The notes beneath the pieces were generated by a model. That model was not told where the DNA came from and made no database searches. It was given only the letters and a program-made list of their open reading frames with translations. A stretch of DNA of 18,277 bases from Methanobacteriota archaeon (GTDB lineage: Archaea; JAADCQ01; Methanopyri; Methanopyrales; Methanopyraceae). Below are positions 2,087 through 15,778 of this stretch, piece by piece. Position numbers and translations under genes: made by a program. The stretch is from contig JAMOPY010000035.1 in assembly GCA_027064305.1 (NCBI GenBank), positions 1 to 18,277 on the forward strand, read 5' to 3'. Within the stretch, counting starts at the first letter, position 1; every line of letters begins with the position of its first letter.

Positions 2087-2590
2087 TGTACACCCCCATC
2101 TAACGCGCTCCTGACGCGATCGCTTGCCGGCACACTCCGAACACACGTCGACTTTCTTGTTGCTCTTGAACCGCTTGCCACACAGTCTGCACCTGCACTC
2201 GTACAGCCGCGCCCGCTTCCCCTCCCGCCGCGCCATCCGCTCGATCCGGCTCGTTCGCTCCACCTCCCGCGCCAGGTAGAACCAACTGTCACCGAACACG
2301 TCCCGGCCGCGCATGATCACCTTCCGGGCCACGTCCAGGCCCTTCTCGTCCCCACGCATGGCCCTGACCATCGCGCTTAAGAACTGGCGTTCCCGGTACC
2401 GGTACAGGTCGATCGCGTCGTTCGGACACACGCGCACGCACTCGTCGCACGCGTCGCAGGCCTCCAGGTTCACGATCACCACCTCGTCACCCTTGACGTC
2501 CAACACCCCCCGCTCGCACGCCTCCACGCAGAGCGCGCAGGAGGCCCCCTCGCACCGCTCCCGGTCGATCTCGATTCTGCGGACCGCCAA
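2075..2590 (-). CDS. 2x[4Fe-4S] ferredoxin domain fused to a C-terminal Zn-ribbon-like domain
   Basis: CEGASCALCVEAC and CDACDECVRVCP cluster motifs; C-terminal CRLC...CSEC; TTG2590 with SD ggtgaggggg preferred over GTG2599. Confidence 0.85.
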   Translation of the reverse strand: MAVRRIEIDRERCEGASCALCVEACERGVLDVKGDEVVIVNLEACDACDECVRVCPNDAIDLYRYRERQFLSAMVRAMRGDEKGLDVARKVIMRGRDVFGDSWFYLAREVERTSRIERMARREGKRARLYECRCRLCGKRFKSNKKVDVCSECAGKRSRQERVRWGCTRKR

Positions 2591-2616
2591 CCCCCTCACC
2601 CCGGGGAGGAAAGCGC

Positions 2617-3012
2617 TTGAACGTGCACGTTCACGAGCGGGAGGGGGACGTCGTGCTGGAGTTCTGTGGGGAGAAGGGGTGCATACAGGTTTCCGCTCGG
2701 GCCTTCTACACGGCGGTGACGATGAGCGGCGAGGACGCGATCAAGAAGACCAAGGAGCTCCTGACCAAGCCCTTCGAGCTGCTCGGGGAGGAGCCCCCGA
2801 GGCTCCGGGTCCGCCCGTCGAAGAAGCCGGAGGGAACGCTGCTGAACCCCTGGGTCCTCTCCTCCCACGACAACGTCGAGTTCCTCACGTTCGAGCTGGA
2901 CACGGGGGACGAGACTTTAAAGCTCTCCTTGGCGACGCCCAACCTCTCCAGGGAGGGCCCCTCCAGGGTGAAAAGGGTCCTGAGCCTGCTGAAGGACCGA
3001 CTCTCCCGGTGA
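2617..3012 (+). CDS. Hypothetical protein, 131 aa
   Basis: SD ggggagga before TTG; typical codon usage; fills the gap before the PhoU gene. Confidence 0.7.
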   Translation: MNVHVHEREGDVVLEFCGEKGCIQVSARAFYTAVTMSGEDAIKKTKELLTKPFELLGEEPPRLRVRPSKKPEGTLLNPWVLSSHDNVEFLTFELDTGDETLKLSLATPNLSREGPSRVKRVLSLLKDRLSR

Positions 3013-3031
3013 ACCCGGAGGTGAGACCGTC

Positions 3032-3961
3032 TTGTACCCCCGCGGAAGGAGGGCGACCCTGGCCGCGATCCTGCGCACGATCCTGAAGGACCGCCCCTCC
3101 ACGCAGAAGGAGATCGCCGAGAAGGTGGGCGTCTCACGCCGCTACGTAACGGAGCTCCTCCAGCCCCTGATAGAGAAGGGGGCGGTCTTCCGCACGTACG
3201 CCGTGGACATGACCAAGCTTCGCCGCCACTTCCCCGAGCTGCTCGAGGAGCTGGGCCGGCACATCCACGAGGACCTGGAGGCCCACCTGAGGAACGTCCG
3301 CCCCTACTTCGAGCGGATGATCGACCTGACGGAGTCCCAGGTGGAGCTCGCGATCCAGGCCGTCGAGCGCGACCCCGATCTGGCCCGCAAGATCGTTAGA
3401 ATGGACGAGGAGGTCAACCGGCTGGACGAGGAGATCCGACTCTACGTCCGCACCCTACCCACGTTCCAGCCGTCCGAGGAGGCGGGCAAGACCGCCGCGC
3501 TCCTCCTGGAAATCTCGCACTGCATCGAGCGGGTCGGGGACTACTCGTGCAACATCGCCGAGGTCGCGGACCGGATCGGCACGCTCTCCGACTTAGAGTG
3601 CTGGGACGACCTCAAGCGGGCGGCCGAGCGCGCCCGGTCCATGATCTCCACCGCGTACGACGCGTTCCTCTCCCTGTCTAAGGACCGCGTGAAGGAGGCG
3701 GCCGACCGGGTGTACCGGCTGGAGGAGGACGTTCACGACCTGATCGTCAAGGTCTGCGACGAGGCGATCCGGGAGGCCGAGGAGTCACCCTCCCGCTCCC
3801 GACACCTGTTCGCCGTCTCCCGTGTGACGAAGGACATCGAGCGGATCGCGGACAAGGCCGTCGACATCGTGGACTACACGCGAGAGCTGATCGAGGGACG
3901 ACCGCGCGACCTGACCCCGGAGCAGGAGGTGCGGGAGACCGTCCCGGCCGACACCGCGTGA
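3032..3961 (+). CDS. phoU: PhoU-family phosphate regulator with N-terminal HTH
   Basis: HTH TQKEIAEKVGVSRRYVTELL; two PhoU repeats (DEEVNRLDEE...IERVGDY; EEDVHDL...DIERIADKA); SD ggaggtga. Confidence 0.88.
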   Translation: MYPRGRRATLAAILRTILKDRPSTQKEIAEKVGVSRRYVTELLQPLIEKGAVFRTYAVDMTKLRRHFPELLEELGRHIHEDLEAHLRNVRPYFERMIDLTESQVELAIQAVERDPDLARKIVRMDEEVNRLDEEIRLYVRTLPTFQPSEEAGKTAALLLEISHCIERVGDYSCNIAEVADRIGTLSDLECWDDLKRAAERARSMISTAYDAFLSLSKDRVKEAADRVYRLEEDVHDLIVKVCDEAIREAEESPSRSRHLFAVSRVTKDIERIADKAVDIVDYTRELIEGRPRDLTPEQEVRETVPADTA

Positions 3962-3971
3962 CCCCTGTCAC

Positions 3972-3982
3972 AGCTTTAAGCC
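3972..3982 (+). promoter_or_regulatory. Putative TATA box of the argJ operon
   Basis: CTTTAAG in a GC-rich intergenic gap about 35 nt upstream of ATG4013. Confidence 0.5.
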
Positions 3983-4012
3983 CCTGACCCCGGGACCGAC
4001 CCGGGGCGCCCC

Positions 4013-5179
4013 ATGGAGGTCCCCTCGGGCTTCCTCCTCGGCGGGGTGAAGGAGGACGACGTCGGGGTAGGCCTGCTCTTCTCGGAGAAACCGTGCTCGG
4101 TGGCCGGCACGTTCACGCGCAACACCCTGCGCGCGGCCCCCGTCGAGTACTCCGAGGAGGTGTGCGCCCGCGGGCGGGCCCGCGGGGTCATCGTTAACAG
4201 CGGTCACGCGAACGCGCTCACCGGCGAGGAGGGAATGCAGGACGTGCTCCGGATGGCCGACGGGGCCTCCCGGCTGTTCGGCGTGCCCGACGACGAGGTC
4301 CTGGTTTGCTCGACCGGGGTCATCGGCGAGCGCCCGCCCGTGGACCGCATCCTCCGCCTGGCGGAGAAGGTCTGGGAGTCCGGGATGGGGGCCGACCCGG
4401 AGCACGTCCGCGCCTTCAACCGGGCCATCATGACGACGGACACCCGGGAGAAGCTCTCCTCGTACTCGGGCGACGGATGGTCCCTCCTCGGGGTGGCCAA
4501 GGGAGCCGGGATGATCCACCCGAACATGTCCACCATGCTCGCCTTCCTGATCACGGACGTCCGGGCCTCGCCCCGCGGGTTGGCCGCCACGCTGCGGGAG
4601 TCCGTGGAGGACACGTTCAACATGATCAGCGTGGACGGGGACGAGAGCACCAACGACACCGTCCTCCTGATGGCCAACGGGGCCTCCGGGCTCGAGCTGG
4701 GCAAGGACGTGCCGGAGTCGGAGTTCGAGGACGCTGTCCTGAACGTGTGCGAGGACCTGGCCCGCGAGATCGCCCGGGACGGCGAGGGATCGACCAAGCT
4801 GCTGGAGGTGGAGGTGCGCGGGGCGCGATCCAAGAAGGAGGCCCGCAGGGCCGCCCGCGCCGTGGTCTCCTCTAACCTGGTCAAGGCCGCCCTCTTCGGG
4901 GAGGACCCGAACTGGGGGAGGGTGGGGGCGGCGATCGGCGCCGCCCGGGTCGACGTGGATCCGGACTCCCTTAGGATCTCCTTCGAAAGCTCCAAAGGCC
5001 GCGTGGTGACCTACGACGGCGGACCCGTCGAGTTCGACGAGAGGAGGGCCGCCCGGGTCCTGTCGGACCGGGAGGTGCGGATCGTGGTGGACCTGGGCGC
5101 GGGGAGCGCGTCCGCCCGCGCCTGGGGGTGCGACCTGACCTACGAATACGTCAAGATCAACGCCGAATACCGCACGTAA
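4013..5179 (+). CDS. argJ: Ornithine acetyltransferase / N-acetylglutamate synthase ArgJ
   Basis: [33 protein letters not shown] (autocleavage Thr), [38 protein letters not shown]. Confidence 0.97.
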
Positions 5180-5195
5180 CGGCGGGGCGGGCCGC

Positions 5196-6431
5196 GTGCC
5201 GGAGGAGGTCATCGAGCTCAAGGGCCACATCATTGACTCCCTGATCCTGTCCAAGGTGCTGGACACGATCATGGAGATGGGCGGGGACTTCGAGATCCTG
5301 GAGTTCGAGGTCGGGAAGCGCAAGACGGACCCCAGCTACGCCAGGATACTCGTGAAGGCGGACGACCCCGACCACCTCGGCGAGATCATCGCGGAGCTGA
5401 GGAAGTACGGGGCGGTGCCCGTCGAGTCGGACGAGGTGCGGGTGGAGCCGGCCCCCGATGACGGCGTCTGCCCGCGCGGCTTCTACACGACCACGAACCA
5501 CCGGACCTTCGTTAAGTTCGACGGTGAGTGGATCGAGGTGGAGAACATCGAGATGGACTGCGCGATCGTGATCTACCCGGAGGAGAGGCGGGCCGTGGCC
5601 AAGCCCATCCGGGAGGTGCGGAAGGGCGAGCTGGTCGTCGTCGGGGACCGGGGGATTAAGGTCAAGCCCCCGGAGCGTCCCCGGGGTCGAACCGGCATCT
5701 TCGGGTTCATGGGCAGCGACGTGTCCCCGGAGAAGCCCACCCCCACCCTGATCCGACGGATCGCCCGGGAGCTGGAGCGGCACCGGAGGGACGGTAAGAT
5801 CGTCGTGGTCGTGGGCCCGGCCGTCATCCACGCCGGGGCCCGGGATCACCTCGCCTGGATGATCAGGAACGGATACGTGGACGTTCTCTTCGCGGGCAAC
5901 GCCGTGGCCGTGCACGACGTGGAGGCGAGCCTGTTCGGGACCTCGCTGGGCGTGGACCTGGAGACGGGTGAGCCCGTGAAGGGTGGGCACAGCCACCACC
6001 TGTACGCCATCAACGAGATCCGCCGCGTGGGCGGGCTCAAGCGGGCCGTGGAGGAGGGAATCCTGAAGGACGGGATCATGTACGAGTGCATCGTGAACGA
6101 CGTGCCCTACGTCCTGGCCGGGTCCATCCGGGACGACGGGCCCATCCCGGACGTGATCACCGACGTGATGGAGGCGCAGAGGGAGATGCGGCGGCACCTG
6201 CGCGGGGCCACGCTCGTCCTCATGCTGGCCACGATGCTGCACTCGATCGCCACCGGAAACCTACTACCCTCCTGGGTGAAGACGATCTGCGTGGACGTCA
6301 ACCCGGCCGTGGTCACCAAGCTCATGGACCGGGGCACGGCGCAGGCGCTGGGCGTGGTCTCCGACGTCGGCGTGTTCCTGCCGGCGCTCGTGAAGGAGCT
6401 TAAGAGGATCCGGAGCGACGACGACGGGTAG
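5196..6431 (+). CDS. TIGR00300 family protein (AgrE/ArgZ C-terminal-type ornithine cyclodeaminase)
   Basis: [68 protein letters not shown] motifs. Confidence 0.9.
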
Positions 6432-6687
6432 GACGGCCCGGGCCGGAGAACTCCTCCACACGCCGCTCGAGCAGCTCCTCCATCACCTTTTTAGCCTCTT
6501 TTAGCGCCTCCCTGGTGCCCCTAAACGCCAGTACGGTGGTTTTCATCCCACCCCGCTCCAGCTCCCGCTGCACGACTTTCACGTCGCACCGCCGCTCAAC
6601 CTCAGCGATGATATCAGCCGGGACCCCTAACGGGATGATCATATCATACTTCCTCGCCTTCTCCTCACCTCCTCCTTGCTCTCCCAC
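6400..6687 (-). CDS. Small hypothetical protein (about 80-95 aa)
   Basis: [14 protein letters not shown]...[20 protein letters not shown] reads as a folded alpha/beta protein; start uncertain (GTG6687 or ATG6642); convergent overlap with the TIGR00300 gene. Confidence 0.65.
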
Positions 6688-6715
6688 GCGGGCCCCCGCA
6701 GGGGGTGCGAGCGGG

Positions 6716-7681
6716 TTGGCGGAAAAAGGTAGCGGTGGCGGCGAGAAGAAGGAGGAGCGGGAGCGCGAGGACCGGATCACGGTGAAATCACGGCACTACG
6801 AGATGCCCTTCTCGCGCGGGGTCCTCGCCCGCTCCCTCACCGCCATCGGCATCGAGCCGCACAAAGCCTACGAGATCGCCCTAGAGATCAAGCGGGAGCT
6901 GCAGCGGGAGGGCGTCCGGGAGATCAGCACGGACGAGCTGGCCGACATCATCCGCCAGAAGCTCGAGGAGATCGACGAGTCCCTCGCGGAGCGATACGAG
7001 CTCTGGCGCCGGATCAAGAAGCGGGAGGAGCCCATCATCGTCCTGATCGGCGGCGCGTCCGGCGTGGGCACGTCCACGATCGCCGCCGAGGTCGGCCACC
7101 GACTCGGCATCACGAACGTGATCGGCACGGACGCCATCCGAGAGGTCATGCGCCGAGTGCTGGCCGAGGAGCTGTACCCGACCCTCTACGAGTCCTCCTA
7201 CACCGCCTGGAAGCGCCTCCGCTACAAGCCCGCCGAGGACCCCGTGATCACCGGCTTCCTCGACCACTCCGAGCCCGTCGTGGTCGGCATCGAGGGCGTC
7301 GTCAACCGCTCGATCAACGAGGGCATCCACGTGATCATCGAGGGCGTGCACATCGTCCCGCGCCTCATCAAGAAGGAGATCCTCAACTACCCCAACGTGT
7401 TCGCCTTCATGCTCGCCGTGGAGGACGAGGAGGCGCACAAGTGGCGCTTCTACGCGCGCTCCCGGGACACCAAGCTATCACGCCCGGCCGAGCGGTACCT
7501 GAAGTACTTCGAGGAGATCCGCAAGATCCACGACTTCCTCGTCGAGGACGCCGAGGACCACGACATCCCGGTGATCAACAACGAGCACATCGACGAGACC
7601 GTGGAGGAGATCGTGAGCTACATATCGTCCAAGTTGCTGAAGGGAGAGAAGGAGCTGGCGAAAAGCTCGTCCTGGTGGTGA
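6716..7681 (+). CDS. pgk2: 2-phosphoglycerate kinase (cDPG pathway) with N-terminal ATP-cone
   Basis: MPFSRGVLARSL ATP-cone; P-loop IGGASGVGTST; TDAIREVMR, LYESSY, IEGVH; TTG6716 with SD gggggtg. Confidence 0.93.
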   Translation: MAEKGSGGGEKKEEREREDRITVKSRHYEMPFSRGVLARSLTAIGIEPHKAYEIALEIKRELQREGVREISTDELADIIRQKLEEIDESLAERYELWRRIKKREEPIIVLIGGASGVGTSTIAAEVGHRLGITNVIGTDAIREVMRRVLAEELYPTLYESSYTAWKRLRYKPAEDPVITGFLDHSEPVVVGIEGVVNRSINEGIHVIIEGVHIVPRLIKKEILNYPNVFAFMLAVEDEEAHKWRFYARSRDTKLSRPAERYLKYFEEIRKIHDFLVEDAEDHDIPVINNEHIDETVEEIVSYISSKLLKGEKELAKSSSWW

Positions 7682-9219: not shown

Positions 9220-9768
9220 TCACTCCCCCGCGCGCTCCATCAGGAGCTCCAGGTAGGACTCGCGCACCCGCTCTCCCCTCACGCCCAGCCTCTCGGCCAG
9301 CCGCAGGAGGCTCTCCTCCGCCCGCTCCACCTCGGAGCGATCGCCCACCGAGCACTCCAACTCCAGGAACGTCCCCAACCCGCTCACCTCGTCCAGCGCC
9401 ACCGTCACGTCCCGACCCTCAAACCTCACCCGGTACACCTCCCGACGCTTCTTAACCTTCACCCGCTCCAGCGGCCGGAACCCCAGGCGCCTCAGGATCC
9501 GATCCATCCGCTCCCCGTCCTCCACCTCAACCTCCACCTCCTCCCGGGACTTCTCCCGACCCACCCGGGGCCCCTTGTACGTCAACACGACCCTACCGTC
9601 CGTGCGGCGCAGCCTCAGCGCCTCGTCCGTCTCCCCGAAGTCCCGGCACGGGTGCTGGTAGTACACGTCCACCTGCTCCAGCGTCCCCTCACGCTCCCCA
9701 AGCTCCCGCAGCCGCTCCCTCACCTCCTCCGGGTTCTCAACGGCGATCTTCACCTCCACCTCGAACAC
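9220..9768 (-). CDS. cyaB: CYTH / class IV adenylate cyclase (CyaB-like triphosphate tunnel metalloenzyme)
   Basis: EVEVK, QVDVYY, ALRLR, LTYKGP, SREEVE, KKRREVY, LDEVSGLGTFLELE, SYLELL. Confidence 0.93.
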   Translation of the reverse strand: MFEVEVKIAVENPEEVRERLRELGEREGTLEQVDVYYQHPCRDFGETDEALRLRRTDGRVVLTYKGPRVGREKSREEVEVEVEDGERMDRILRRLGFRPLERVKVKKRREVYRVRFEGRDVTVALDEVSGLGTFLELECSVGDRSEVERAEESLLRLAERLGVRGERVRESYLELLMERAGE

Positions 9769-10939
9769 GCTCCCTCCCCCGCAGCAGCTCCCCGAGGAAT
9801 CCCGGGTTGACCGTCAGGTACCCCAGGACCGCCCCCAGCGCCGCCGGCACGGCGCAGTCCATGCCGAACAGCTCCATCACGAGCACCGCGGCCGAGACCG
9901 GGGCGTCGAACGCCACCGCCAGGAACGCGGACATGGAGGCGGCCACGGCGGCCGGCGCCGGCAACCCCACCAGCGCCCGCACGGCGGACCCGAAGAAGAT
10001 CGAGGCGCACACGACCGGCGAGACGAAGCCCGCGGGCACCCCGCTCCCCAGCGTGAGCGACGTTGCCGCCACCTTACCCAGGAACGCCAGCCCCGAGCAC
10101 CACGGGTCCATCCGACCCACCGCCGCCCGGGACGCCCAGTCCAGCCCCAGCCCGACCGCCTGCGGCACCCACGCTCCCAGGGCCGCGACCGCGACCCCGG
10201 CGAGCAGCGCCCGGACCTCCGCCCGCTGAACCCGGTGAAACCACCGGTACGCGACCTGCACCGAGCGCACCAGACCGTACGCCGCCACGGCCGCCGCCAG
10301 GCCCACCACCGTCAGCCCCGGCAGGTCCCACCAGGAGTACGCGTACCCGGCGTGGGCCGTCAGCAGGTAACGCTTCCCCAGGACCAGGTAGTACACCGTG
10401 TACCCGGAAACGCTGGCGATGATGGCCGGAGGCAGGCACGGATACCCCAACCTCCCACCGAGCGTCTCCAGCGTGAAGAGGGCCGCGGAAACCGGCGCGC
10501 ACAGGACCCCGGACACCCCACCGGACGCGGTCGCGACGATCACCCACGACCTGGGCAGTCCCTTCACGCCGAGCCGCTCGGCGCACCAACGGCCGATGGA
10601 CACGCATGACTGCACGCAGGGACCCACCTGGCCCCCGCTCCCGCCCGACCCGATCACGGTCCCCGCCACCAGGAGCTTGAGCACGCCGGCCACCGGATCC
10701 CTGGCGCGCCCCTGCCGGGCCTTGTCCAGCCCCGTCCCCGGAAGCTCCGGGTGCAGCGAGCTCACGGCCCCGGCCAGCGCCATCACCGCGGGCGTCACCC
10801 ACACGGACCCGCCGGAGAGTCGACCCACGGTCAGGATGGTCCAGGTGATGGTGGCGGCGCACAGCCCGCCGACGGCGCCCAGGGCCAGCGACAGCAGCGT
10901 CCACCGCACCGTCAACGTTAGATCGTCGCGCAGGACCAC
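9737..10939 (-). CDS. CLC-family anion transport protein (divergent)
   Basis: Multiple TM helices; GTGLD, GGSGGQVGP, APVSAALFTLE, LGSGVPAGFVSP, APVSAAVLVMEL match the CLC motif positions. Confidence 0.85.
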   Translation of the reverse strand: MVLRDDLTLTVRWTLLSLALGAVGGLCAATITWTILTVGRLSGGSVWVTPAVMALAGAVSSLHPELPGTGLDKARQGRARDPVAGVLKLLVAGTVIGSGGSGGQVGPCVQSCVSIGRWCAERLGVKGLPRSWVIVATASGGVSGVLCAPVSAALFTLETLGGRLGYPCLPPAIIASVSGYTVYYLVLGKRYLLTAHAGYAYSWWDLPGLTVVGLAAAVAAYGLVRSVQVAYRWFHRVQRAEVRALLAGVAVAALGAWVPQAVGLGLDWASRAAVGRMDPWCSGLAFLGKVAATSLTLGSGVPAGFVSPVVCASIFFGSAVRALVGLPAPAAVAASMSAFLAVAFDAPVSAAVLVMELFGMDCAVPAALGAVLGYLTVNPGFLGELLRGRERVRGGGEDRR

Positions 10940-10955
10940 CCGCCCCGGGGAGGTG

Positions 10956-11285
10956 ATGTTGGGCTGGGAGCTGCGGGTCGAGCGGGACCGCCGGGAGACC
11001 GTGTGCGGCCGGGTCCTGGAGCTGTACTCGGACGAGCGCCTCTCCCTGGCCGAGGTCGAGGTGGACGGGGAGGGCGAGGAGCACTACCACGAGCGGACCA
11101 CGGAAGTTTATTACGTGCTGGAGGGAACCGGCCGCGTCCACCTGAACGGGCGGCCCGTGGACGTCCGCCCCGGAGACGTGATCGTGGTGAGACCCGGGGT
11201 AAGGCACAAGGTGGAGGGCCGGATGAGGCTGCTCGTCGCGTGCTCACCCCCCTTCGACCCCGAGGACGTGCACGCGGAGGGATGA
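10956..11285 (+). CDS. Cupin domain protein, 109 aa
   Basis: HYHERTTEVYYVLEGTG and PGDVIVVRPGVRH metal-binding motifs; SD ggggaggtg; start ATG10956 or TTG10959. Confidence 0.9.
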   Translation: MLGWELRVERDRRETVCGRVLELYSDERLSLAEVEVDGEGEEHYHERTTEVYYVLEGTGRVHLNGRPVDVRPGDVIVVRPGVRHKVEGRMRLLVACSPPFDPEDVHAEG

Positions 11286-11352
11286 TGAGCTAAGCCTACT
11301 CCGACCCGAGCGGGAGTGATGGAACGGGTGAGCTGCCTGACCTCCCGCGTGC
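11270..11352 (+). ncRNA. Box C/D methylation-guide sRNA
   Basis: C ATGATGA 11282-88, 12-nt guide, D' CCGA 11301-04, hairpin linker, C' GTGATGG 11316-22, guide, D CTGA 11337-40; terminal stem gcacgcggagg/cctcccgcgtgc. Confidence 0.88.
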
Positions 11353-11618
11353 GCGCCACCCTCCGGCTGCGGGTGCCCGACCCGGTGCTCCTCGCCCTGA
11401 TTCCGGACGCGGACCCCTGGTGCCGCGTGCGAGACCGCCGCATCCACCTGCGAGGCGACGGCTTCGGGCCCCTGAAGCACGCCGTCGACGACGTGCTTCG
11501 GTGCGTGAAAGCGGGCCTGTCGACCCTGAGGGTGGCCGAGAATGCAGCCGCTGACGCGGAGGAACAAGGACGAGCACCCGGCCGTGACCGACCCGGACAC
11601 GACGATCATCCTCGGTGA
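11349..11618 (+). CDS. Pcc1-like protein (KEOPS complex subunit family)
   Basis: ATLRLRV...LLALIPD...IHLRGDGFGPLKHAVDDVLRCVKAG resembles the Pcc1 pattern; GTG11349, at the 3' end of the sRNA, preferred over 11316/11319. Confidence 0.55.
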   Translation: MRATLRLRVPDPVLLALIPDADPWCRVRDRRIHLRGDGFGPLKHAVDDVLRCVKAGLSTLRVAENAAADAEEQGRAPGRDRPGHDDHPR

Positions 11619-12249
11619 CGTGCGGGCGAGCGAGGACTGCGTGATCGGCGAGCGCGTCCGGCTGGGCCCCGACGCGAGGCTGCGCGGCGCCCTGATCTCG
11701 GGCGAGTCCGTGATCTACAACGCGGAGCTCGAGGGGTGCGCGGTGGGCTCTCGAACCACCGTCACGGGCCGGGTCTCGGAGGGCGCCACCGTCCACCACG
11801 GCTCCGTGCTGGGGCAGCTGAAGGTCAGCGGGGACCTCGAGCCCCCCACCGTCGGCCGGGGCGCCCTGGTCGGACCCGGCGTCTCCCTCCTACCCGGCGC
11901 CGAGGTGGGCGAGGAGGCGGTGCTGCTCCCGAACAGCGTGGTGACCGAGCGGGTGCCCCGGCGCGGGGTGGTGGGGGGCAACCCTGCGATGCCCCGCGGC
12001 GTGGTCGTGGACGCGGAGCGGGTGGAGGTCGAGTTCGACGGCTCGGAGTTTCAGGTCGAGGGACGCCGGGGGCGCGCCTTCAACCTCAGGCTCGCCGACG
12101 GCGGGCTGGAGATCGAGGAGGGACGCCCCGAGGAGTTCGGGGTGATCGCCGAGGAGCGGCCGCGGATCGTCCGACTGGGGCACGCGATCGAGCTCCCGCG
12201 CCGACCCTTCACCTTCCCCCTCCACGTGCTCCACCTGAGGATCAAGTAG
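11542..12249 (+). CDS. Hexapeptide-repeat (left-handed beta-helix) acyltransferase-like protein
   Basis: PTVGRGALVGPGVSLLPGAEVGEEAVLLPNSVVTERVPRRGVVGGNPA, a typical LbH acetyltransferase C-terminus. Confidence 0.8.
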   Translation: MQPLTRRNKDEHPAVTDPDTTIILGDVRASEDCVIGERVRLGPDARLRGALISGESVIYNAELEGCAVGSRTTVTGRVSEGATVHHGSVLGQLKVSGDLEPPTVGRGALVGPGVSLLPGAEVGEEAVLLPNSVVTERVPRRGVVGGNPAMPRGVVVDAERVEVEFDGSEFQVEGRRGRAFNLRLADGGLEIEEGRPEEFGVIAEERPRIVRLGHAIELPRRPFTFPLHVLHLRIK

Positions 12250-12260
12250 GGGGACCGCCG

Positions 12261-12863
12261 GTGCCCGTCCGGGACTCGGTCCTCATCGACACGAAGGTGG
12301 AGGAAGGGCTGGTGCTCGGGAGCGTGCTGGAGGGGTGCGAGGTCCGACGGGCGGCGGTGGTCGGCACCGTGGCCCGCGGGGAGCGGTTCCGGGAGACCGT
12401 GGTGGTGGGCGGCCGCGAGGTCGACGGTAGGGTGATCACCGTGCCCGTTCGGGCCGGGGAGTGGGGGGCCGCGTCCGGGGAGGAGGAGGCGCGCGTGCCT
12501 GGGGACGACGGTGACGTCCTCGCGATCGTGGCGGACGCGGGCGCGATGGGCCTGCTTCGGGACCTGCTGAGGCTGGAACCGCGCCGGGTCGGCCTCCACG
12601 CGCTGTTCACGTTCTCCGGCCCGCTGCCGGGCCGGCTCCGGCGGAGGATCGTGGGCAACCTGGACGTGTTCCGGGAGTGCTGCCCCTGCGCCTACCTGCG
12701 CCTCGGCGACACCGTGCTCGCCTTCCGGGGAGGGCGGCAGGTCTTCGGCGAGCCCGAGGAGGTGCGGTACAGGGACGTGCTGGTCGTGCGGGAGGGCCGA
12801 CCGGCGCTGTCCGCCTGGCGACCGGCGGCCCGCAGCGTGATCTCCGAGCTCGGGGCCGGGTGA
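12261..12863 (+). CDS. Hypothetical protein with a short beta-helix-like N-terminus, 200 aa
   Basis: SD aggggga before GTG12261; VRDSVLIDTKVEEGLVLGSVLEGCEVRRAAVVG repeat-like segment; CCPC motif. Confidence 0.6.
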   Translation: MPVRDSVLIDTKVEEGLVLGSVLEGCEVRRAAVVGTVARGERFRETVVVGGREVDGRVITVPVRAGEWGAASGEEEARVPGDDGDVLAIVADAGAMGLLRDLLRLEPRRVGLHALFTFSGPLPGRLRRRIVGNLDVFRECCPCAYLRLGDTVLAFRGGRQVFGEPEEVRYRDVLVVREGRPALSAWRPAARSVISELGAG

Positions 12864-12869
12864 CCCCGC

Positions 12870-13775
12870 GTGGCCGACCCGCGCGAGCTGCCGGAGCTCT
12901 TCTGCCGGGCCGTCGCGATCGAGGCGCTCTCGGGCCCGAAGCCCGGGCTCGTGGACCCCGTCTCCCCCAGCCCCCATCCGGACATGGGGCCCCGGGAGTT
13001 CTGCCTCTGCCTGCCCGCGCTGAGGAGGTGCCTGCGTGAGGCGCTGGAGCTCGGGCTGAGTCGGGAACCGGTGGAGGAGCTCGTGCGCCGCCTGCCCGCC
13101 TGGAACGTGGACGTGCTCACCGCCTCCGCCGGCCCGAACCCCGTGCGCGGGGTCCTGTTCCTGGGGGCCGTGCACTGTTACTCGGCCGGGTGGGAGCGGG
13201 ACCCCATGCCCGTCGATCGGATCCGGGAGGTGGGCCGGTTCTGCGCGGAGCGCCTGTGGGATCGGACGGAAACGAAGTGCGGTCGAAGGCGGGTTCGGGA
13301 GGGGCTGGCCGGGATCTTCGGGGAGGCGGCCTCCGGGCTCGCGACGGCCAGGACGGTGTCGCTCCCCACCCTGGTCTCGGTGCTGAGAAGGGGCGGCTCG
13401 CTCGAGGAGGCCGTGGTCCAGTCGGTCCTGGCCTGCATGGCCGTACTGGAGGACGCGGGGCTCCCACCGGGGGATCGAAGGTGGGTCCGGCGCCGGGCGC
13501 GCCGGGTGCTGCGGCTGGGCGGGGTGATGACCCCCAGGGGCCGGCGGGAGCTCTGGTCGTTCGTGCGGGAGTGCCTCGAACGCCGCGTCAGCCCGGGCGC
13601 GTCCGGCGACGTGACGGTGGTCGGGCTCGTGATGCTGTTCCTCCGGTGGGGCCGGGACCTTGCTTCCCCGTATCTTGATCCTCCGGGACGGTGGCGTGGG
13701 GGAGCAGTGGGGGCGGACGGTGCGGCTCCTGGTGCGCGGGGACGGGACGAGGGTGGTGGCCGCCCGGGGCGATAG
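12870..13775 (+). CDS. citG: CitG/MdcB-family triphosphoribosyl-dephospho-CoA synthase
   Basis: EALSGPKPGLVDP...HPDM, NPVRGVLFL, GIFGEAASG, SPGASGDV motifs. Confidence 0.85.
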   Translation: MADPRELPELFCRAVAIEALSGPKPGLVDPVSPSPHPDMGPREFCLCLPALRRCLREALELGLSREPVEELVRRLPAWNVDVLTASAGPNPVRGVLFLGAVHCYSAGWERDPMPVDRIREVGRFCAERLWDRTETKCGRRRVREGLAGIFGEAASGLATARTVSLPTLVSVLRRGGSLEEAVVQSVLACMAVLEDAGLPPGDRRWVRRRARRVLRLGGVMTPRGRRELWSFVRECLERRVSPGASGDVTVVGLVMLFLRWGRDLASPYLDPPGRWRGGAVGADGAAPGARGRDEGGGRPGR

Positions 13776-14247
13776 GAAGTTTTTTAGTCCGGGAGAGGTG
13801 AGAGTTGAAAGAAGGTTAACGCCCTGGGACGCCTACCGGGAGATCTGCCCGAGGCTCAGGCTCGACGCGCTGGAGCCGCCGGAGGACGCGGGTCACCCGG
13901 TCGACCCCGAGGTGGGGTACCGGGTGCTGGAGCTCCTGTCCGTGCTGTGGAGGTCCGGGATCCGCGACCTGGGCGTCGTCGGGACGGTGGGCTGCGCCGC
14001 CCCGCTTCACGACCTGACGGTGGGGAACCCGGTCGGGTGGACGAGCCTGCGGGTGGCGAACCCCGGGTCGGACCTCGACTTAATAATCCGGGAGAGGAAA
14101 ACCCTACGAGCCCTCCTGCGCCTGGGGTTCCGGGTCGTCAGACGCCGGGGCGATGGCGCGGTGCTGTCCCCGGACCGCGTCACGGGCTTTCGAACGCCCA
14201 GACTTGACGTGAGGTGGGGGTGCGACGTTGGCGGACGATCTGGATAG
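13660..14247 (+). CDS. Pol-beta-fold nucleotidyltransferase, MdcG-like (phosphoribosyl-dephospho-CoA transferase candidate)
   Basis: LGVVGTVG...SDLDLII...RLDV catalytic pattern; N-terminal VRG...R...LTP similar to MdcG; adjacent to citG. Start uncertain. Confidence 0.6.
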
Positions 14248-15691
14248 CCTGCTGCCCGACACCTCGGAGAGCGTCAGCCTGAGCGCGCTTAAGAACCTGA
14301 AGAACGAGCTGGAGGAGTTGTCGGACAAGTCCGACTCCAACCTGGAGGAGCTGACCGAGGTGCTGGACGACCTGATCACGCTGATGGAGCGGACCGGGGT
14401 GGAGAACCTCCGGGACCTCGTGGAGAAGTTCGAGGACCTGCGGCGGGAGAAGAAGCGGCTGGAGGAGCTCCTGCAGGAGTACTTCAAGCGGCTGGAGGAG
14501 CTGGAGCGGAAGCTGAAGGCCCAGGAGGAGAAGCTCCGCATCGAGGCGCGGCGCCGAAAGACGCTGGAGCGCGAGCTGGAGATGGAGCGGGACGAGAAGG
14601 CCGAGCTGCGGGAGGAGCTGCGCCGGAAGGAGGTCATGATCGAGAAGCTCCGCAACGACCTGCAACGGCTGAAGAAGCCGCCCCTGATCGTGGGCACGGT
14701 GGAGGAGGTGCTCGAGGACGGTCGCGTCATCGTCAAGAGCTCCACCGGCCCGAAGTTCGTCTCGAACGTGAGCCCCACCGTGGACCGGGACGAGATCCAG
14801 CCGGGCGTGAACGTGGCCCTGAACCAGCAGAGCATGGCCGTCGTCGACGTGCTACCCTCGGAGAAGGACCCGCGGGTCACGGCCATGGAGGTGGAGGAGG
14901 AGCCGGACGTCACGTACGATGACATCGGCGGGCTGGACGAGCAGATCCAGGAGATCCGAGAGGTCGTGGAGAAGCCGCTCAAGGAGCCCGAACTGTTCGA
15001 GAAGGTCGGCGTCGAGCCGCCGAAGGGCGTGCTCCTCTACGGCCCACCGGGCACGGGCAAGACCCTCCTCGCCCGCGCGGTCGCCCACCACGCGGACGCC
15101 ACGTTCATCCGGCTCGCCGCGCCCGAGCTCGTCCAGAAGTTCATCGGCGAGGGCGCCCGACTCGTCCGCGAGCTCTTCGAGCTGGCCCGGGAGAAGGCCC
15201 CGAGCATCATCTTCATCGACGAGATCGACGCCATCGGCGCCCGACGCATGCGGGACGCCACGAGCGGTGACCGCGAGGTCCAGCGCACGCTGACGCAGCT
15301 CCTGGCCGAGATGGACGGCTTCGACCCGCTCGACGACATCAAGGTCATCGCCGCGACCAACCGGAAGGACATCCTGGACCCAGCGCTCCTCCGACCCGGC
15401 CGGTTCGACCGACACATCAAGATCCCGCTGCCGGACGAGGAGGGCCGCTACGAGATCTTCAAGATCCACACGCGGGACATGAACATCTCCGACGACGTGG
15501 ACCTGAAGAAGCTGGCCAAGATGACGGAGGGCGCCTCGGGCGCCGACATCAAGGCCATCTGCACCGAGGCCGGAATGATGGCCATCCGCGAGGACCGAGA
15601 CGTCGTCACCATGCGCGACTTCATCAAGGCCGTCGAGCGCGTCCTGGGCACCAGGGAGGAGGAGGGAGAGTACAAGCGGGCGTACCACTAA
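14228..15691 (+). CDS. pan: Proteasome-activating nucleotidase (AAA+)
   Basis: Coiled coil, PPLIVG OB domain, [14 protein letters not shown] pore loop, [12 protein letters not shown]...LRPGRFDR, C-terminal HbYX (AYH). Confidence 0.98.
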
Positions 15692-15693
15692 AC

Positions 15694-15778
15694 CCCCGGC
15701 GCGGATGAAGAGGCGGTTGCTGGCGGACCGGCCAGGGATGATGAGTAGTGGGCGAGCGGACCTACCTACGGGTCGGGG
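15694..15778 (+). ncRNA. Box C/D methylation-guide sRNA (variant boxes)
   Basis: C ATGAAGA 15705-11, 12-nt guide, D' CGGA 15724-27, C' ATGATGA 15738-44, 12-nt guide, D CGGA 15757-60; flanks ccccggc/gtcgggg can pair. Confidence 0.75.

Follow-up and report, generated by a model that had tools for sequence, protein, structure and literature searches.

A Methanopyrus-restricted gene cassette around a bacterial-type CitG gene: a possible lineage-specific pathway on CitG chemistry

Results and discussion

An orphan CitG cassette in Methanopyrus

The contig JAMOPY010000035.1 of assembly GCA_027064305.1 (18,277 nt; this whole stretch is called the window below) carries four tightly packed genes, one of which belongs to the CitG/MdcB family and is termed CitG2 here. 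The other three code for an LbH acyltransferase-like protein (LbH), an ORFan with a conserved NLDVFRECCPCA motif (CCPC) and a second ORFan (NT). All four genes were found only in Methanopyrus, and together they are a genuine lineage-restricted orphan CitG cassette. We tentatively read this operon-like cassette as a lineage-specific pathway on CitG-type chemistry, in which NT would be the candidate transferase and the acceptor would not be an acyl carrier protein (ACP); we consider this reading possible rather than probable.

The source assembly comprises 1.21 Mb in 50 contigs and is 89% complete. The organism belongs to the genus Methanopyrus, as do the nearest relatives of the window proteins, and five further genomes of this genus served for comparison. 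The G+C content of the window is about 70%, and at this value long open reading frames (ORFs) occur in all frames, 99 of them with at least 60 aa in the 18 kb window. Therefore each gene call was tested by family models or by conservation across species. The cassette genes and the two features within NT to which we refer below are:

11542-12249, plus strand: LbH acyltransferase-like protein, 235 aa; PF00132, E 2.4e-12, 46.4 bits, cut-off 27
12261-12863 (longest reading from 12246), plus strand: CCPC-motif ORFan, 200 aa; no family
12870-13775, plus strand: CitG2, CitG/MdcB family, 301 aa; PF01874, E 5.6e-33, 115.2 bits, cut-off 27
13720-14247 (longest reading from 13660), plus strand: NT ORFan, 175 aa; no family
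14068-14082, plus strand: S-D-L-D-L codons, candidate metal-binding DxD strand of NT; S137, D138, D140 and L141 invariant in 7/7 sequences
13771-13787, plus strand: AT-rich box GATAGGAAGTTTTTTAG inside the 5' end of NT, spanning the CitG2 stop codon; candidate internal archaeal promoter

The arrangement is operon-like: neighbouring genes overlap or are separated by no more than 6 nt. The end of LbH overlaps the longest reading of CCPC by 4 nt, a gap of 6 nt separates CCPC from CitG2, and the GTG start of NT at 13720, which is common to four of the seven aligned homologues, is situated 56 nt inside CitG2. NT overlaps CitG2 or lies within 38 nt of it in all four genomes compared. An initial annotation, made from the sequence alone, had described a clear CitG preceded by an LbH-like gene and a CCPC protein and overlapped by a second ORF, and this description holds in each of its parts.

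The cassette genes are protein genes found only in Methanopyrus

The window was compared with three other Methanopyrus genomes by counting substitutions per codon position. In all four cassette genes the third position was the most variable and the second the least (3>1>2). Against the M. kandleri-like genome G002 the counts for codon positions 1/2/3 were 59/45/107 for NT (over 174 codons) and 80/59/124 for CCPC; for NT, two more genomes agreed in this order. The NT frame is open in all five other Methanopyrus genomes, and an alignment of seven NT sequences, 51-99% identical to the window protein, has 56 invariant columns. For CCPC there are 59 invariant columns, NLDVFRECCPCA among them. Intact frames of the cassette genes were present in the Methanopyrus genomes examined. 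Because of the codon pattern, the open frames and the invariant columns we regard all four as real protein genes. The same three lines of evidence, with NT invariant columns persisting down to 51% identity, speak against the alternative that the NT ORF is untranslated and merely part of a long 5' leader of the downstream gene pan (proteasome-activating nucleotidase), in a GC-rich genome with chance ORFs. The abundance of ORFs in the window and RNA contigs that run from inside NT into pan (see below) would agree with such a leader, which we nevertheless consider highly improbable.

The distribution of the four genes is narrow. A word-based search of a collection of 5.8 billion proteins returned six clusters of NT homologues, exclusively from Methanopyrus; an NT profile (HMMER) run against 1.84 billion representatives gave three matches, all of the same family; and among 41 genomes six matched, all of one genus. 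The CCPC homologues fell into four clusters, all Methanopyri or archaeal metagenome-assembled genomes. For CitG2 six close clusters were found, Methanopyrus only, after which the identity falls to 27-29%. Full-length orthologues of LbH were restricted to six Methanopyrus genomes among 61 archaeal genomes searched, the other matches in this set covering the repeat region only.

Canonical partners of CitG were not found

The partner proteins of CitG were sought by six-frame scans of five Methanopyrus genomes, of which two are single contigs with a completeness of 99%. Matches above cut-off to PF06857 (ACP, CitD/MdcC), PF04223 (CitF), PF16957 (MdcA) and PF03328 (CitE) were found in none of the five genomes; the best match to a CitD/MdcC carrier had an E value of 0.097 and lay at an unrelated place. 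PF03802 (CitX) gave no match at E<=0.1 in these genomes, the NT locus included. Likewise, no ACP, lyase or decarboxylase family was present among the window ORFs scanned, as the initial annotation had stated. As no canonical partner exceeded its cut-off, no canonical cit/mdc set accounts for the CitG2-NT pair, and the earlier description of this CitG as an orphan stands: the canonical set elsewhere in the genome that could have explained the pair was not found, with all five families at 0/5 genomes.

To our knowledge, the 2'-(5''-phosphoribosyl)-3'-dephospho-CoA group occurs only in bacterial citrate and citramalate lyases and malonate decarboxylase. Here a bacterial-type CitG is under selection in a hyperthermophilic methanogen in which those enzymes were not found, beside three genus-specific proteins. 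This suggests that either the acceptor of CitG chemistry or the substrate of the CitG fold is a new one.

CitG2 differs from the common archaeal CitG type

CitG2 aligns to PF01874 over profile positions 2-282 of 284, that is, over nearly its full length. The best NCBIfam model is TIGR03132 (MdcB) with 95.5 bits, under the equivalog cut-off of 282.35; TIGR03125 (CitG) gave 76.7 bits and is also under its equivalog cut-off (272.3). A relative with a solved structure was not found by phmmer. A second CitG gene, CitG1, is located on contig C42 and is with 248 bits a far better match than CitG2. Of the 61 archaeal genomes, 30 carry a CitG gene: there are two CitG matches in each of the six Methanopyrus genomes and one in each of the 24 other CitG-positive archaea.

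A maximum likelihood tree was calculated from 37 sequences (27 archaeal sequences of the CitG1 type, five CitG2 and five bacterial CitG/MdcB) and left unrooted. The 27 archaeal CitG1-type sequences lie on one side of a 100/100 branch, and CitG2 together with the bacterial CitG/MdcB on the other. Since three groups meet at one node and there is no root, the firm claim is confined to CitG2 not falling within the archaeal type. Measured along the branches, CitG2 is closer to the bacterial enzymes (3.7 changes per column separate it from the closest bacterial sequence), and it sits on a long stem of 1.74 changes per column. The approximately unbiased (AU) test rejected a grouping of Methanopyrus CitG1 with CitG2 as one clade (p 0.0037), which counts against a recent duplication of CitG1; for this test the group was named after the tree had been seen, and long branches were flagged by the program. 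The MdcB model, which does not depend on the tree, gives CitG2 95.5 bits and CitG1 47.9 bits. Moreover, CitG2 and the bacterial enzymes have the N-terminal motif PKPGLVD...H.DM in common, and CitG2 lacks an insert of about 30 aa that is present in the archaeal type.

CitG1 overlaps a downstream DUF447 gene (contig C42, minus strand, locus 800-2400). A DUF447-like ORF adjoins the CitG1-type gene in 15 of 30 loci, namely in all six from Methanopyrus and in nine of the 24 others, counted within 1.5 kb on each side. CitG2 has no DUF447 neighbour. Given that CitG1 stands apart by its clade, its insert and its DUF447 partner, CitG1 probably covers the common archaeal role and CitG2 something else. 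Thus two kinds of archaeal CitG can be set apart, a widespread CitG1/DUF447 pair, itself uncharacterised in the literature searched, and the distinct CitG2. Further genes next to the CitG1/DUF447 pair on contig C42 are PAP2, HD-domain and porphobilinogen-synthase-like genes.

The archaeal CitG1 type, with which we group the orf7 type of methylotrophs, is likewise orphan with respect to cit and mdc genes. In methylotrophs a tetrahydromethanopterin-linked island is given as mch-orf5-orf7 (gene list in PMC3615186), and a gene table lists mch, a glutamate ligase and a 'triphosphoribosyl-dephospho-CoA synthase' in this order (PMC11533326). Pieced together from these two gene lists, orf7 appears to be CitG-like. 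Such islands raise the question whether CitG2 could be a second ribosyl-triphosphate transferase of cofactor biosynthesis, for a methanopterin-type or other ribosylated coenzyme variant that only Methanopyrus has, and which would complement CitG1. This alternative would be in line with the presence of CitG in about half of the archaeal genomes searched (30/61) and with the cit/mdc genes not found in the five Methanopyrus genomes. On the other hand, CitG2 does not resemble the archaeal or orf7 type, which shares PF01874 with it, by either tree position or insert; it has no DUF447 next to it, as the archaeal type often has; and no known cofactor gene belongs to the cassette. Our literature searches retrieved nothing on CitG in Methanopyrus and no paper linking CitG with methanopterin, and among the titles on triphosphoribosyl-dephospho-CoA in archaea one paper merely lists the enzyme while the others do not concern archaeal CitG. 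We consider a role of CitG2 in cofactor biosynthesis unlikely.

A possible pathway

If the cassette works as a pathway, CitG2 would transfer the ribose-5-triphosphate moiety of ATP to a hydroxyl of dephospho-CoA or of a similar nucleotide-like acceptor, with release of adenine. NT would be a minimal Pol-beta-type nucleotidyltransferase (NTase) using the triphosphoribosyl product as its nucleoside triphosphate. In the manner of MdcG and CitX, it would join the phosphoribosyl compound to a hydroxyl of the acceptor and split off pyrophosphate. This acceptor would be other than a carrier of the CitD/MdcC type: a small molecule, or another protein, for which CCPC and LbH of the cassette are the closest candidates. 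An acyl group from acyl-CoA would be added by the LbH protein. The membership of CitG2 in the CitG family, its bacterial-type features, the overlap and the motif of NT, and the missing cit and mdc parts count for this reading. So do the second CitG match in every Methanopyrus genome, the separate DUF447 partner of CitG1, the score of the NT motif above all shuffled MdcG profiles, MdcG as the only NTase family reported for NT by Pfam, and the order of helices and strands in the NT model (see below). The initial annotation had likewise proposed a synthase that acts together with a transferase, an interpretation that is plausible and unproven, and to which we would give tentative credence. One specific version, in which NT attaches the CitG2 product to a protein that is neither a lyase nor a decarboxylase (CCPC, LbH or a substrate of a co-transcribed PAN), appears improbable to us. 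If true, such a protein attachment would mean a new archaeal CoA-derived prosthetic group or tag and a transferase family without detectable relatives. The four proteins are small and come from a cultivable organism, and the reactions could be followed in vitro by the release of adenine and of pyrophosphate and by a mass shift of about +882 Da (hand calculation).

Among known systems MdcB/MdcG of bacteria is similar in that a CitG-family synthase stands beside a small (about 175-230 aa) protein with G-[ST]...S-D-L-D-L. In plasmid examples mdcG and mdcB overlap by a few bases, and CitG2 and NT likewise overlap. In contrast to these examples, the gene order is reversed in Methanopyrus, where the synthase comes first, and genes for MdcA, C, D, E or H were not found in Methanopyrus. 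The CitG/CitX pair of bacterial citrate lyase is comparable in its synthase-plus-transferase logic and in its adjacent or overlapping genes, but in the five Methanopyrus genomes neither a CitX match nor CitD, CitF or CitE was found.

The LbH protein matches the hexapeptide hidden Markov model PF00132 above cut-off and has a C-terminal extension of about 85 aa without known family; it is below every equivalog cut-off of NCBIfam. The best sequence matches of its residues 100-150 in the PDB are maltose, serine and streptogramin O-acetyltransferases (E 4e-6 to 1e-4), for example residues 133-183 of the maltose O-acetyltransferase 3hjj (E 3.7e-6). An acylation role of the LbH protein is putative and is read solely from this likeness to acetyl-CoA-dependent O-acetyltransferases. 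CCPC consists of a short LbH-like N-terminal part, whose similarity to LbH coils is weak (hhalign P 0.011), and a C-terminal domain with NLDVFRECCPCA, a motif invariant in all seven aligned sequences. Searches of CCPC against Pfam, NCBIfam, PADLOC, the PDB and the ESM Atlas gave no match. The cassette was also considered as a defence system and this was rejected, with no PADLOC match for five proteins.

Weighing the pathway

Several observations weigh against the pathway proposed above, and they concern CitG2, the missing carrier, NT and the locus as a whole. Five bacterial CitG/MdcB sequences share 51 invariant columns; 20 of these are kept in all four CitG2 sequences compared and 31 are lost, and five residues are deleted at the R-G-G loop. 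Judging from these lost columns, the substrate of CitG2 may differ, or CitG2 may be inactive. The cassette could in the latter case be the decaying relic of an old bacterial acquisition, in which CitG2 would have become a pseudo-enzyme and the ORFans would be remnants that took on some other, structural or regulatory, function. The long stem of CitG2 and its scores far under the equivalog cut-offs would fit such a relic as well. What argues against decay are the 87 columns without variation among six CitG2 sequences, whose identity to the window protein is 53-80%, the codon-position pattern typical of purifying selection in all four genes, and the intact frames in the Methanopyrus genomes examined. 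We consider a relic decidedly unlikely.

LbH, CCPC and NT were compared with MdcC as possible carriers, and all three were rejected (hhalign P 0.29-0.45).

The initial annotation had taken the second ORF for an NTase with an MdcG-type pattern. The pattern itself is well conserved: G108-T109 and S137-D-L-D-L141 (numbering from 13660) are invariant or nearly so in the seven NT sequences, and D165, located in G-D-[GR]-[AV], is invariant and a candidate third carboxylate. However, the assignment to a family failed, since no family model matched significantly and the motif is found in NTP_transf_2 proteins, too. PF10620 (MdcG), the only NTase family reported by Pfam for NT at E<=10, matched two of the seven members over 22 residues with E 0.25 and 11.7 bits (cut-off 26.5), and when the genome was scanned in six frames with this model, an unrelated site gave more (14 bits). 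Neither MdcG_N nor PF01909 was matched, the former in the NT family and the latter for NT at E<=10.

Homology to MdcG was examined by profile comparison with 11 annotated MdcG proteins, which were taken from plasmid records and aligned. The NT family aligned by hhalign to this reference over 17 columns around SDLDL, with a score of 28.7, a P value of 0.0015 and a probability of 16.8%; the MdcG side of the match reads T-G-L-x-Y-V-x-P-x-S-D-L-D-L-L. This score was above those of all 60 column-shuffled MdcG profiles (maximum 19.8), of the reversed profile (12.9) and of unrelated alignments (11.5-17.6). Generic NTP_transf_2 proteins of Methanopyrus gave 25.1 over 11 columns with NT, whereas true MdcG aligned with the same proteins over 80 columns, and P-G-S-D-L-D-V is found in ordinary NTP_transf_2 proteins of Methanopyrus as well. 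As generic NTases score nearly alike, SDLDL is a motif of the superfamily and not a signature of MdcG. The claimed homology is not established, and a generic NTase unrelated to MdcG, which the initial annotation had named as the case against its reading, is a possible identity of NT as well. NT also differs from MdcG in having neither its N-terminal domain nor the D-G-E motif, which follows the DxD strand in 11/11 MdcG sequences; hhalign left this region unaligned. With the minimal Pol-beta NTases (NTP_transf_2/MNT) NT shares the P-G-S-D-L-D-[VL] strand after G-[ST], but PF01909 is silent on NT, and G-T and S-D are 28 residues apart in NT as against about 11-16 in the sequences of NTP_transf_2 and MdcG that we inspected. 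The sequence of NT thus shows a Pol-beta superfamily motif, the DxD strand, and no feature that would assign it to MdcG in particular.

The AlphaFold2 model of NT is poor, with a mean predicted local distance difference test (pLDDT) value of 54.5; its order of helix, strand, loop, DLD strand, helix and two strands would fit a minimal NTase core at this pLDDT. The structural look-alikes in the ESM Atlas are clusters of the NTase type with template modelling (TM) scores of 0.43-0.47, which is under the meaningful level. No usable remote homologue of NT was obtained by the word search, the HMMER profile search of 1.84 billion representatives, the PDB profile search or the ESM Atlas. Concatenated RecA chains, the only matches from the PDB, were rejected as an artefact (six weak repeats, i-Evalue about 260 each).

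At the level of the locus, the order of the genes from CYTH to the gene resembling CoA-disulfide reductase is identical in the three genomes compared, one locus stopping within pan. Because the whole region is collinear within one genus, synteny is uninformative on function.

The last point concerns RNA. Contigs from four runs, which belong to one study with at most two samples and are size-fractionated, matched the locus in G002. In all four runs contigs covered the start region of LbH (G002 locus 3747-4337), and in all four they also extended over NT into the first ~500 nt of pan (6256-7197) and thus span the junction of these two genes. The latter contigs start 25-45 nt downstream of the AT-rich box GATAGGAAGTTTTTTAG, which is conserved in all four genomes aligned and is also coding (D-R-K-F-F). 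The box may be an internal promoter; this is a weak hint, as contigs cannot show true transcript starts. A sigma-70 promoter scan found nothing, the model being irrelevant for an archaeon. Taken together, the RNA contigs and the box tie NT no less to pan than to CitG2. RNA-contig cover is missing from the middle of CitG2 and from the CLC/cupin region, and these gaps were not used as evidence.

CitG2 and NT could therefore be neighbours without a shared pathway, NT being a lineage-specific protein that is expressed with pan or acts on or with PAN, and CitG2, alone or with LbH and CCPC, modifying a small molecule. Besides the contigs and the box, the stop codon of NT, 20 nt inside the listed pan ORF, and the lack of a significant family match for NT would agree with this. 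Against it stands the conserved start of NT 56 nt inside CitG2. In addition, the N-terminal 30 residues of NT, whose codons precede the candidate promoter, show conservation at the protein level in five of the seven sequences, which implies translation from a transcript that also carries CitG2, and the position of the contig ends does not define a transcript start. We regard such a mere neighbourhood as the main alternative, though on balance a somewhat unlikely one.

Neighbouring genes and small RNAs

Outside the cassette the following features were identified in the window:

14228-15691, plus strand: pan; TIGR01242, 617 bits; neighbour, cassette membership only putative
listed start 15748, plus strand: weak GNAT, downstream of pan; PF00583, 23 bits, cut-off 20.7
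downstream of pan, plus strand: GT2 glycosyltransferase gene, absent from the initial annotation
downstream of pan, plus strand: gene resembling CoA-disulfide reductase/NADH oxidase; TIGR03385, 236 bits, under the cut-off of 579
10398-11285, plus strand: ORF with a small cupin at its end, upstream of LbH; Cupin_2, E 7e-16
upstream: housekeeping genes TFB, Gar1, PhoU-HTH regulator, ArgJ, LOR/SDH-ArgZ-like, ATP-cone, CBS, CYTH, CLC

The presence of pan, GNAT and CoA-disulfide-reductase-like genes downstream agrees with what had been annotated. Their inclusion in one system with the cassette, as far as the GNAT and the reductase-like gene, found no support beyond adjacency in a region that is collinear in a single genus. 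PAN of Methanopyrus has a long acidic coiled-coil N-terminal extension (window 14228-14540), which is conserved from residue 1 in other genomes of the genus; of the 487 residues, those before 119 lie outside the match to TIGR01242.

The 295 aa cupin ORF at 10398-11285 (plus strand) overlaps the CLC channel gene at 9737-10939 (minus strand) on the opposite strand. The real cupin gene is likely to be its last ~100 aa, from about 10980. Between the cupin and LbH, there is a small ORF of about 75-80 aa (11316-~11555, plus strand), whose protein has conserved counterparts in three other Methanopyrus genomes with 43-80% identity and the core AVDDVLRCVK; in one of these three its stop lies near the LbH start. 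By eye it had been considered Pcc1-like, which was rejected for want of Pfam or NCBIfam support.

Rfam reported nothing in the window at the gathering threshold. An abundant small RNA is situated between pan and GNAT (window ~15697-15765, plus strand), reading from GGATGAAGA to GATGATGA; its G002 orthologue (locus L013, 8184-8251) reached a depth of 4000-6500 in three of the four runs. As this RNA overlaps the listed GTG start of GNAT at 15748, the real start is probably further downstream. Another element resembles a C/D-box small RNA (window ~11277-11348, plus strand), starts at the cupin stop codon, precedes the small ORF, and contains ATGATGA, GTGATGG and CTGA in this order. RNA contigs cover its G002 orthologue (locus L013, 3704-3775) with a depth of 2200-4000, likewise in three of four runs. 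At 3775 a loose contig end carries the 5' start of the element once more, a hallmark of circular RNA; circular C/D box small RNAs of M. kandleri have been published (PMC3695527).

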